From Escherichia coli (GTDB lineage: Bacteria; Pseudomonadota; Gammaproteobacteria; Enterobacterales; Enterobacteriaceae), in assembly GCF_003334355.1 (NCBI RefSeq), contig NZ_QOWP01000045.1: a stretch of DNA of 23,209 bases, one strand, 5' to 3'. A program made the translations under genes and the position numbers. Each line of letters begins with the position of its first letter. The first letter of the stretch is position 1. Positions 4,234-6,578 of this stretch are shown in pieces. The notes under the pieces were generated by a model that searched no databases, had not been told where the DNA came from, and saw nothing but the letters and a program-made list of their open reading frames with translations.

Positions 4234-4405
4234 CCTGCCACCTTTTTCTTACCTTTTGCCGCTATGATGCCGATCGTTTCTTGAGGTTATTATTCAGTTT
4301 TGCAAATTAGCGCAAAGAAATTCTGGAATCTTCCTTCCTGATTTTGCATGGCATTCTGCCGTTGCGGCGATTTAGTGCTATTTTCGAGCAAATTACACAC
4401 GGAGG

Positions 4406-4423
4406 TAAACACTAATGTTTACT
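4406..4423. promoter_or_regulatory. Palindrome GTAAACA-cta-ATGTTTAC upstream of hicA; candidate HicB operator
   Basis: Read directly: GTAAACA (4406-4412) and TGTTTAC (4417-4423) are reverse complements, about 35-50 bp upstream of the hicA start. The operator role is inference from known autoregulation of type II TA operons. Confidence 0.3.
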
Positions 4424-4454
4424 TTGTTGATATACTCAGCGGCAGGGAGGCGAT

Positions 4455-4631
4455 GTGAAACAAAGCGAGTTCAGACGTTGGCTCGAATCTCAGGGCGTCG
4501 ATGTAGCGAATGGCAGCAACCATTTGAAACTCAGGTTTCATGGGAGGCGCAGTGTCATGCCGCGTCACCCTTGCGATGAGATTAAAGAACCATTGCGTAA
4601 AGCAATCCTGAAACAACTCGGTTTGAGTTAA
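4455..4631 (+). CDS. hicA: HicA toxin (mRNA interferase) of the HicAB type II toxin-antitoxin system, 58 aa
   Basis: GTG start at 4455 preceded by GGGAGG (4445-4450); stop TAA 4629-4631. Translation MKQSEFRRWLESQGVDVANGSNHLKLRFHGRRSVMPRHPCDEIKEPLRKAILKQLGLS is the HicA dsRBD-like toxin. Below the 60 aa track cut-off, so not in the ORF list. Confidence 0.85.
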   Translation: MKQSEFRRWLESQGVDVANGSNHLKLRFHGRRSVMPRHPCDEIKEPLRKAILKQLGLS

Positions 4632-4655
4632 TCGCCAATTAAAAAGGTTAATGAC

Positions 4656-5093
<438 letters not shown>

Positions 5094-5171
5094 TTACAGT
5101 TAACGAAAAGTTGTCATTTTTAACAACTGATATAGACTGCCGAATCATCTGCACATAATTACGATTCGATA

Positions 5172-6578
5172 ATGAAAAAATACCAGCAGCTTGCAGAACA
5201 ATTACGCGAGCAGATTGCGTCGGGTATCTGGCAACCCGGCGATCGTTTGCCTTCGTTGCGTGACCAGGTGGCGCTTTCAGGCATGAGCTTTATGACTGTC
5301 AGCCATGCCTATCAGTTGCTCGAAAGTCAGGGACATATTATCGCGCGACCGCAGTCGGGTTATTACGTTGCGCCACAGGCAATAAAAATGCCGAAAGCGC
5401 CAGTCATTCCAGTCACTCGAGATGAAGCAGTCGATATCAACACCTATATTTTTGATATGTTGCAGGCCAGTCGCGATCCGTCGGTAGTTCCGTTTGCCTC
5501 GGCCTTTCCCGACCCGCGACTTTTCCCCCTCCAACAACTAAACCGCTCGCTGGCGCAGGTAAGCAAAACCGCCACGGCGATGAGCGTGATTGAAAACTTG
5601 CCGCCAGGAAACGCAGAACTGCGTCAGGCTATTGCCCGTCGCTATGCCTTACAGGGCATCACCATTTCTCCTGATGAAATTGTCATCACTGCCGGGGCGT
5701 TAGAAGCATTAAACCTCAGTTTGCAAGCGGTAACTGAACCGGGCGATTGGGTGATAGTAGAGAATCCTTGTTTCTACGGTGCGTTGCAGGCGCTGGAGCG
5801 GCTACGGCTGAAGGCGTTATCGGTGGCGACGGATGTTAAAGAAGGGATCGATCTTCAGGCGCTGGAACTGGCGTTGCAGGAGTATCCGGTGAAAGCGTGC
5901 TGGCTGATGACTAATAGCCAGAATCCACTCGGATTTACCTTAACGCCGCAAAAAAAAGCACAACTGGTGGCGTTGCTCAATCAGTACAACGTAACGCTGA
6001 TTGAAGATGACGTTTACAGCGAACTTTATTTTGGACGGGAAAAACCGCTGCCTGCGAAAGCGTGGGATCGCCACGATGGCGTTTTGCATTGCTCTTCGTT
6101 TTCGAAATGTCTGGTGCCTGGTTTTCGTATTGGTTGGGTCGCCGCCGGAAAACATGCACGTAAAATTCAACGATTGCAGTTGATGAGTACGCTTTCCACC
6201 AGCTCACCGATGCAGCTTGCGCTGGTGGATTACCTTTCCACGCGCCGATACGACGCCCATCTTCGTCGCCTGCGTCGCCAGCTTGCGGAACGTAAACAAC
6301 GTGCCTGGCAGGCACTGCTGCGTTATCTGCCTGCGGAAGTGAAAATTCATCATAATGACAGCGGTTATTTTCTCTGGCTGGAGCTCCCCGAGCCGTTAGA
6401 TGCCGGCGAATTGAGCCTGGCGGCACTGACGCATCATATCAGTATTGCGCCGGGTAAAATGTTTTCTACCGGTGAAAACTGGTCACGTTTTTTTCGTTTT
6501 AATACCGCGTGGCAGTGGGGAGAACGTGAAGAACAGGCGGTAAAACAATTAGGCAAACTTATTCAAGAACGGCTGTAA
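5172..6578 (+). CDS. ydcR: MocR/GabR-type regulator (GntR winged-HTH fused to a PLP aminotransferase-like domain), 468 aa
   Basis: ORF 5172..6578. N-terminus (YQQLAEQLREQIASGIWQPGDRLPSLRDQVALSGMSFMTVSHAYQLLESQGHIIARPQSGYYV) is a GntR-type HTH, followed by a large aminotransferase-like domain. Sits immediately upstream of the ydcSTUV-patD cluster. Confidence 0.85.
   Translation: MKKYQQLAEQLREQIASGIWQPGDRLPSLRDQVALSGMSFMTVSHAYQLLESQGHIIARPQSGYYVAPQAIKMPKAPVIPVTRDEAVDINTYIFDMLQASRDPSVVPFASAFPDPRLFPLQQLNRSLAQVSKTATAMSVIENLPPGNAELRQAIARRYALQGITISPDEIVITAGALEALNLSLQAVTEPGDWVIVENPCFYGALQALERLRLKALSVATDVKEGIDLQALELALQEYPVKACWLMTNSQNPLGFTLTPQKKAQLVALLNQYNVTLIEDDVYSELYFGREKPLPAKAWDRHDGVLHCSSFSKCLVPGFRIGWVAAGKHARKIQRLQLMSTLSTSSPMQLALVDYLSTRRYDAHLRRLRRQLAERKQRAWQALLRYLPAEVKIHHNDSGYFLWLELPEPLDAGELSLAALTHHISIAPGKMFSTGENWSRFFRFNTAWQWGEREEQAVKQLGKLIQERL

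Follow-up and report, generated by a model that had tools for sequence, protein, structure and literature searches.

The 78-bp spacer between hicB and ydcR in Escherichia coli (5094-5171, 32% G+C) carries a short inverted repeat, and it raises the question of whether this repeat ends the hicAB transcript, serves the ydcR promoter, or only happens to lie where another element resides. An earlier note, made from the sequence, had read it either as a weak terminator of hicAB or as an element of the ydcR promoter, and as determining whether ydcR is read through from hicAB. All coordinates refer to the window, the whole stretch of 23,209 nucleotides analyzed here, which corresponds to the E. coli rlhA(ydcP)-yncJ-hicAB-ydcR-ydcS region, is identical to MG1655 over 5060-5200 and is converted by subtracting 1,504,831 from the NC_000913.3 coordinate. 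On the plus strand, hicB occupies 4677-5093 (MG1655 RefSeq annotation mapped onto the window, and the open reading frame list) and ends with the stop codon TAA at 5091-5093, and ydcR, encoding a MocR-type regulator, runs from its ATG at 5172 to 6578 (open reading frame list, MG1655 annotation and Pfam domains). Based on the data described below, we hold with good confidence that the spacer is a sigma-70 promoter of ydcR lying inside a 42-bp two-box dyad operator bound by YdcR, which probably regulates its own gene. The conservation and spacing of the boxes, the promoter hexamers with the start site, and the occupancy by YdcR in vivo are directly established, the start site and the occupancy by published work.

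The perfect 6-bp inverted repeat is indeed present on the plus strand at 5109-5128 (AGTTGT 5109-5114, ACAACT 5123-5128, 8-nt loop), with the end of the stem 43 nt before the ydcR ATG, close to the 45 bp given in the earlier note. The TTAAC copies exist as well, at 5100-5104 and 5120-5124, but they do not flank the stem as described, since the second copy lies inside the hairpin, in the loop and the 3' arm. A perfect 6-bp inverted repeat with a loop of 3-12 nt arises in 18% of 5000 dinucleotide-preserving shuffles of 5094-5171, repeats of the same class occur at 4.2 per kb across the window, and a repeated 5-mer is found in 94% of shuffles of the 78-nt spacer. Both the hairpin and the TTAAC copies are real, but neither exceeds chance expectation. 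Across 78 distinct orthologous upstream regions, 37.7% of the hairpin pair cells are complementary vs. 39.5% in shuffled controls, the full set of six pairs is limited to the four sequences from Escherichia, and information content stays below 0.7 bit beneath the variable parts of the two TTAAC copies. Of the two arms of the hairpin, the 5' one shares bases with the -35 hexamer TTGTCA of the ydcR promoter and the 3' one with the right half-site of the dyad. The hairpin thus results from a chance match, particular to Escherichia, of the -35 region with the right box, and on present evidence it is no functional unit. A structured RNA was considered separately and rejected: Rfam covariance models gave no match at E <= 1 on either strand of 4900-5400, the fold of the whole spacer had z = -1.04, and folding of the regions from right box to ATG in 71 orthologues gave no structure signal (mean z +0.1).

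What is conserved upstream of ydcR was determined on a comparative set of 80 loci with YdcR orthologues 80-97% identical, from Escherichia, Citrobacter, Salmonella, Klebsiella, Raoultella, Enterobacter, Kluyvera, Leclercia, Lelliottia and others, with conservation measured on the 78 distinct upstream regions, which represent about 20 enterobacterial genera. The shared pattern consists of (C)ATAACAGTT, about 23 variable bases containing an A-run and then a T-run, and finally (A)CTGATATA, and the resulting dyad, with the consensus ATAACAGTT-N4-AAAA-N-TTTT-N-AACTGATATA across Enterobacteriaceae, occupies 5093-5134. Conservation is confined to the two boxes and the A and T tracts, with 1.2-2.0 bits per column, and everything else in the spacer stays below 0.7 bit. 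The left box (5093-5101, plus strand), with the sequence ATTACAGTT here and ATAACAGTT as the consensus of the family, retains 1.2-1.9 bits per column in an alignment anchored on the right block, a measure independent of that anchor. Its inverted copy, the right box AACTGATATA, was placed at 5125-5134 on the same strand by the CTG.TATA offset and by complementarity. Between them, an A-tract (5106-5109; A5107 in 95% and A5108 in 85%) mirrors a T-tract (5117-5121; T5118 in 88% and T5119 in 97%), both on the plus strand. The blocks A5106-5108 and T5117-5120 are conserved along with the boxes, and all four blocks are symmetric about 5113.

The spacing within the dyad is fixed. From start to start the boxes are 33 nt apart in 74 of 81 loci (measured to CTG.TATA) and 34 nt in 3 more, which corresponds to the arrangement CAG-N27-CTG with 30 bp from centre to centre, and the distance to the ATG varies from 27 to 52 nt. 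Complementarity holds in 87.7% of the dyad cells vs. 23-50% with the partner columns displaced by 1-3, and positions 5107 and 5119 form an A/T pair in 73 of 78 sequences. This symmetry is maintained by invariant, identical sequence and not by covariation, the signature of a protein site. The right box begins with CTGA in 83% of the sequences and with CTGT in 17%; the ACAG of the left box is CTGT on the other strand. Pattern searches for another dyad, upstream of yncJ and in the rest of the window, returned the ydcR site only.

Conservation sets in exactly at 5093, so that the last base of the hicB stop codon is also the first base of the left box. Among the loci compared, hicAB stands upstream of ydcR only in Escherichia and some Citrobacter, and the dyad is present in more than 55 loci that have unrelated upstream genes in place of hicAB. 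Because it is retained with or without hicAB upstream, the dyad belongs to ydcR; the hicAB cassette abuts the ancestral ydcR control region directly while lying outside it. The spacer sequence as a traveller with the hicAB module was rejected: a plasmid search for the sequence following hicB returned only chromosome-sized E. coli records and distant hicA/hicB fragments, and no plasmid match carried the post-hicB sequence.

Within E. coli, the 121-bp region is found in 5410 of 5426 complete genomes, with at least 99% identity in 4748. At 5091-5096, the hicB stop of K-12-type strains is TAA, with ATTACAGTT after it, and O145:H28 RM12581 and CUVET19-1704 have TGA followed by the family-consensus ATAACAGTT (positions 121-127 of our loci L087 and L088); thus the stop codon and the left box vary together. 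E. coli HUE1 carries an IS1B element between the left box and the -35 hexamer, at about 5104-5113 (about 1013-1800 of L086), with a short CGAAAAGTTG on both sides of the insertion, and the dyad is therefore split in that strain. About 1,200 of 5,417 E. coli genomes, ST131 EC958 included, match some 67% of 4250-5600 in two pieces with no hicA annotated, and in other genomes the match is about 22 bp shorter and hicA is annotated only as 'mRNA interferase'. Seemingly, hicA has often been deleted or damaged in genomes that retain hicB and the ydcR promoter. Further upstream, a 13-nt GGGAGGCGATGTG-like sequence is present three times within 4445-4554 (77-100% identity, 48-49 nt spacing), the copies starting at the ribosome-binding site of hicA and continuing into its coding region. 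Many Citrobacter (L008, L011-L013 and L015-L017, at about 2912-2925) show an extra inverted box, AACTGTTAAC-TATAACAGTT, adjoining the left box on its upstream side, where the hicB remnant meets the operator; this extra box may be a third YdcR box.

A promoter of ydcR lies within the dyad. A promoter scan identified, on the plus strand, a -35 hexamer TTGTCA (5111-5116) and, after a 16-nt spacer, a -10 hexamer TAGACT (5133-5138), together giving 9 of 12 matches to sigma-70 hexamers; T5133, A5134 and T5138 are conserved in 100%, 99% and 83% of the sequences. Mapping of the ydcR start had been proposed as a check, and a published start exists: the table of Kim et al. 2012 lists ydcR at NC_000913.2 1508002 on the plus strand with 3 reads (PMC3415461). 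The 51-nt upstream string given there (...GCCGAATCA) ends at window position A5147, which fits the hexamers found by the scan and leaves a 25-nt 5' UTR. The start is backed by 3 reads only and lies 9 nt from the -10 hexamer, which is slightly far. With respect to 5147, the left box spans -54 to -46 and the right box -22 to -13, the latter overlapping the first two bases of the -10 hexamer; part of the conservation of its TGATATA could reflect an extended -10-like element. Hence the earlier suggestion of a ydcR promoter element had the right place and the wrong object, the functional units being the hexamers and the two YdcR boxes and not the hairpin. A second 6-bp inverted repeat, CGAATC at 5141-5146 and GATTCG at 5163-5168, brackets the start and reaches the ydcR ribosome-binding region. 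Three non-coli Escherichia lineages (E69, E. whittamii and SCPM-O-B-8794) carry the compensatory pair A5143G and T5166C, and some Citrobacter have other inverted repeats where CGAATC/GATTCG sits.

The regulator YdcR is encoded immediately downstream. YdcR combines a Pfam GntR winged helix at residues 3-66 (E 1e-13) with an Aminotran_1_2 domain at residues 141-445 (E 3e-33), that is, the N-terminal GntR winged helix-turn-helix and C-terminal fold-type-I aminotransferase-like domain of a MocR regulator. Its operator has the form described for the family by Suvorova & Rodionov 2016, with two or more short boxes, in direct or inverted orientation, separated by whole helical turns and a constant spacing within the orthologous group, and the TGT/TGG core is found in the boxes. 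Occupancy is provided by published data mapped here and not by a new experiment: among the 19 ChIP-exo sites of YdcR-8myc in Dataset S4 of Gao et al. 2021, site 3 (MG1655 1509941-1509970) has the second highest signal/noise, 12.3, and is also bound by RNA polymerase (PMC8464067). The coordinates of that table are those of NC_000913.3, as confirmed on three other peaks against annotated genes, and this places the peak at 5110-5139, an interval that includes the right box and the -35 hexamer and not the left box. The study listed the site as a 30-bp interval without a motif, and in its dataset ydcR appears in the YdcR list and in that of no other transcription factor (PMC8464067). Given the coincident RNA polymerase occupancy, part of the YdcR signal could be promoter-associated.

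A second target carries the same half-site. Suvorova & Rodionov 2016 predicted ylaC as an E. coli YdcR target in an enterobacterial regulog that does not list autoregulation ('TF'), and ylaC is also a YdcR ChIP-exo target (Gao et al. 2021, PMC8464067). When a half-site matrix built from the left boxes only (maximum 18.9 bits) was applied, the best half-site in 8 kb was CATAACAGTTG in the ylaC promoter, at 15.9 bits, with a second box, ATCTGTTAC, 24 bp downstream in the same orientation. In MG1655 (L081 5320-5356) the ylaC promoter reads AACTGTTAT-N15-ATCTGTTAC, in direct orientation at about -62 and -38 from the published start. The two promoters thus have in common the regulator, the half-site CTGTTAT/ATAACAG and their status as ChIP-exo targets, and they differ in arrangement: the ylaC boxes are direct, 24 bp apart and at an activator-like position, whereas those at ydcR are inverted copies separated by 30 bp, with the -35 hexamer lying between them. 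From the shared target ylaC we infer that the YdcR motif of Suvorova & Rodionov is probably the present dyad. The ChIP-exo interval at ylaC lies in the 5' UTR, 65-100 bp from the boxes, and the positional precision of the dataset is therefore limited. At the other strong ChIP-exo sites, ynaE, ydfJ and dinD, no comparable dyad was found and at most one weak half-site. The strongest YdcR peak, dinD (signal/noise 12.5), has an SOS-box region upstream, AAATACAGTTA (MG1655, L083 364-374), that scores as a YdcR-like half-site, and its signal may come from cross-recognition of CTGT/ACAG cores or be an artefact of the ChIP. The LexA SOS box is CTGT-N8-ACAG; the ydcR dyad contains the same CTGT/ACAG core, but its arms stand in the opposite order (ACAG...CTG) and its spacer is 27 nt instead of 8, and no sign of LexA binding emerged at this site.

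How YdcR would act at this site can be outlined by analogy with the MocR family, of which GabR, PdxR and TauR are examples. Each box would receive one winged-helix domain of a YdcR dimer; with about three helical turns between them, both boxes would face the same side of the DNA, and the phased A and T tracts may favor bending. In Bacillus subtilis, GabR recognizes two short boxes about three helical turns apart at the gabR/gabT promoters, and its site overlaps the promoter of the regulator itself, giving autoregulation. The ydcR site resembles it in having a MocR regulator with a GntR winged helix-turn-helix and an aminotransferase-like domain, two boxes and overlap with its own promoter; it differs in that the GabR boxes are direct repeats (ATACCA) and the ydcR boxes are inverted (ATAACAG/CTGATAT), with the sign of regulation at ydcR only suggested by position. 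With the -35 hexamer between the boxes and the right box abutting the -10 hexamer, bound YdcR would most likely compete with RNA polymerase or reposition it. Because of these positions autorepression is favored, by a modest measure of confidence. Activation or dual control is also possible, considering the activator-like boxes at ylaC and the activation of srfN by YdcR in Salmonella, as the latter is reported in a summary of Liu et al. 2017 (PMC7400052).

The conserved blocks might instead be mere promoter architecture, namely an UP-like A-tract, the -35 hexamer and an extended -10-like TGATATA, or the site of another regulator, with the ChIP-exo signal as promoter or RNA polymerase background. 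The overlap of the right box with the -10 region, where TGnTATA resembles an extended -10, the RNA polymerase flag on the YdcR peak and the several other YdcR peaks that lack the motif are all in keeping with this account. It leaves unexplained, however, a left box, ATAACAGTT, that lies at -54 to -46 with an invariant CAG, is not UP-like and is an exact inverted copy of the right box at fixed spacing; the box moreover recurs at ylaC, an independently predicted YdcR target, and the ydcR promoter is confined to the YdcR list among the factors of the dataset. We therefore regard promoter architecture without YdcR as unlikely. Another proposal is that the palindrome AGTTGT-N8-ACAACT itself is the site of a dimeric protein, such as HicB, or YdcR binding in the classical GntR mode. 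Short palindromes with GT...AC are common among operators of the GntR family, and the ChIP-exo interval 5110-5139 covers both arms, yet the arms are unconserved outside Escherichia although YdcR is 80-97% identical, and the palindrome is centred at 5118.5, away from the point at 5113 about which the conserved blocks are symmetric. As to HicB, no repeats of at least 9 nt link the hicAB promoter region (4234-4454), where HicB acts, with 5094-5171, and a HicB operator was rejected for want of a motif of that kind common to the two. The chance that the palindrome is a protein site thus appears very slight.

It is just as improbable that hicAB transcripts are ended or attenuated ahead of ydcR by the hairpin, acting as a weak intrinsic terminator, one of the two readings in the earlier note, or as a pause site. 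Shortly beyond the hicB stop codon the RNA can pair into a 6-bp stem of -4.8 kcal/mol, a stability reached by only 8 of 200 shuffled versions of the 31-mer. A Rho-independent terminator likewise places a stem-loop directly 3' of a stop codon, but it has a G+C-rich, stable stem and a 3' U-rich tract, whereas here only two of the six pairs are G-C and the loop measures 8 nt; downstream of the stem comes GAUAUAGACU, which lacks a U run, and 3 of the first 10 nt there (GATATAGACT) are T. A terminator scan reported nothing in the spacer, the stem is unconserved, and the equivalent 31-mers in orthologues have a median MFE of -0.2 kcal/mol. The available text of the 3'-end map for E. coli by Adams et al. 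2021 contains no hicB/ydcR entry, which weighs little as that text may be incomplete, and the same applies to the SMRT-Cappable-seq set of full-length transcripts, whose possibly incomplete text likewise lacks a hicB/ydcR entry. A survey of toxin-antitoxin loci judged hicAB-ydcR 'likely cotranscribed; putative promoter present' (PMC5120126). Read-through from hicAB into ydcR is likely because no terminator is present, and ydcR is thus probably transcribed both from its own promoter and by extension of hicAB transcripts. Nothing demonstrates that the hairpin decides upon this read-through; since the start at 5147 lies downstream of the hairpin, ydcR has its own promoter whatever read-through does.

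Read-through could in turn be gated by the operator. With the operator abutting the hicB stop codon and no terminator between, dyad-bound YdcR might act as a roadblock to transcripts from the stress-induced hicAB promoters. The CGAATC/GATTCG repeat, which is complete only in read-through transcripts because the ydcR start is at 5147, could mask the ydcR ribosome-binding region in those transcripts. Together, the two would insulate ydcR from the toxin-antitoxin module. The one observation in favor of this arrangement is the single compensatory A-T to G-C change in the repeat among Escherichia lineages, the family as a whole shows no structure signal, and we consider the arrangement decidedly improbable.

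Cumulatively, an ordinary promoter and a MocR-type operator make up the site between hicB and ydcR, and its binding and start are already contained in published datasets; what is added here is the base-level definition of the two-box YdcR dyad. Its significance beyond annotation is small. It corrects a tempting misreading, as a hairpin 3' of a stop codon need not be a terminator. Deletion of hicAB, for example in strains from which multiple toxin-antitoxin modules have been removed, could clip the left box and alter the expression of ydcR. As YdcR controls a virulence-related gene in Salmonella, the defined operator may aid searches for its regulon.
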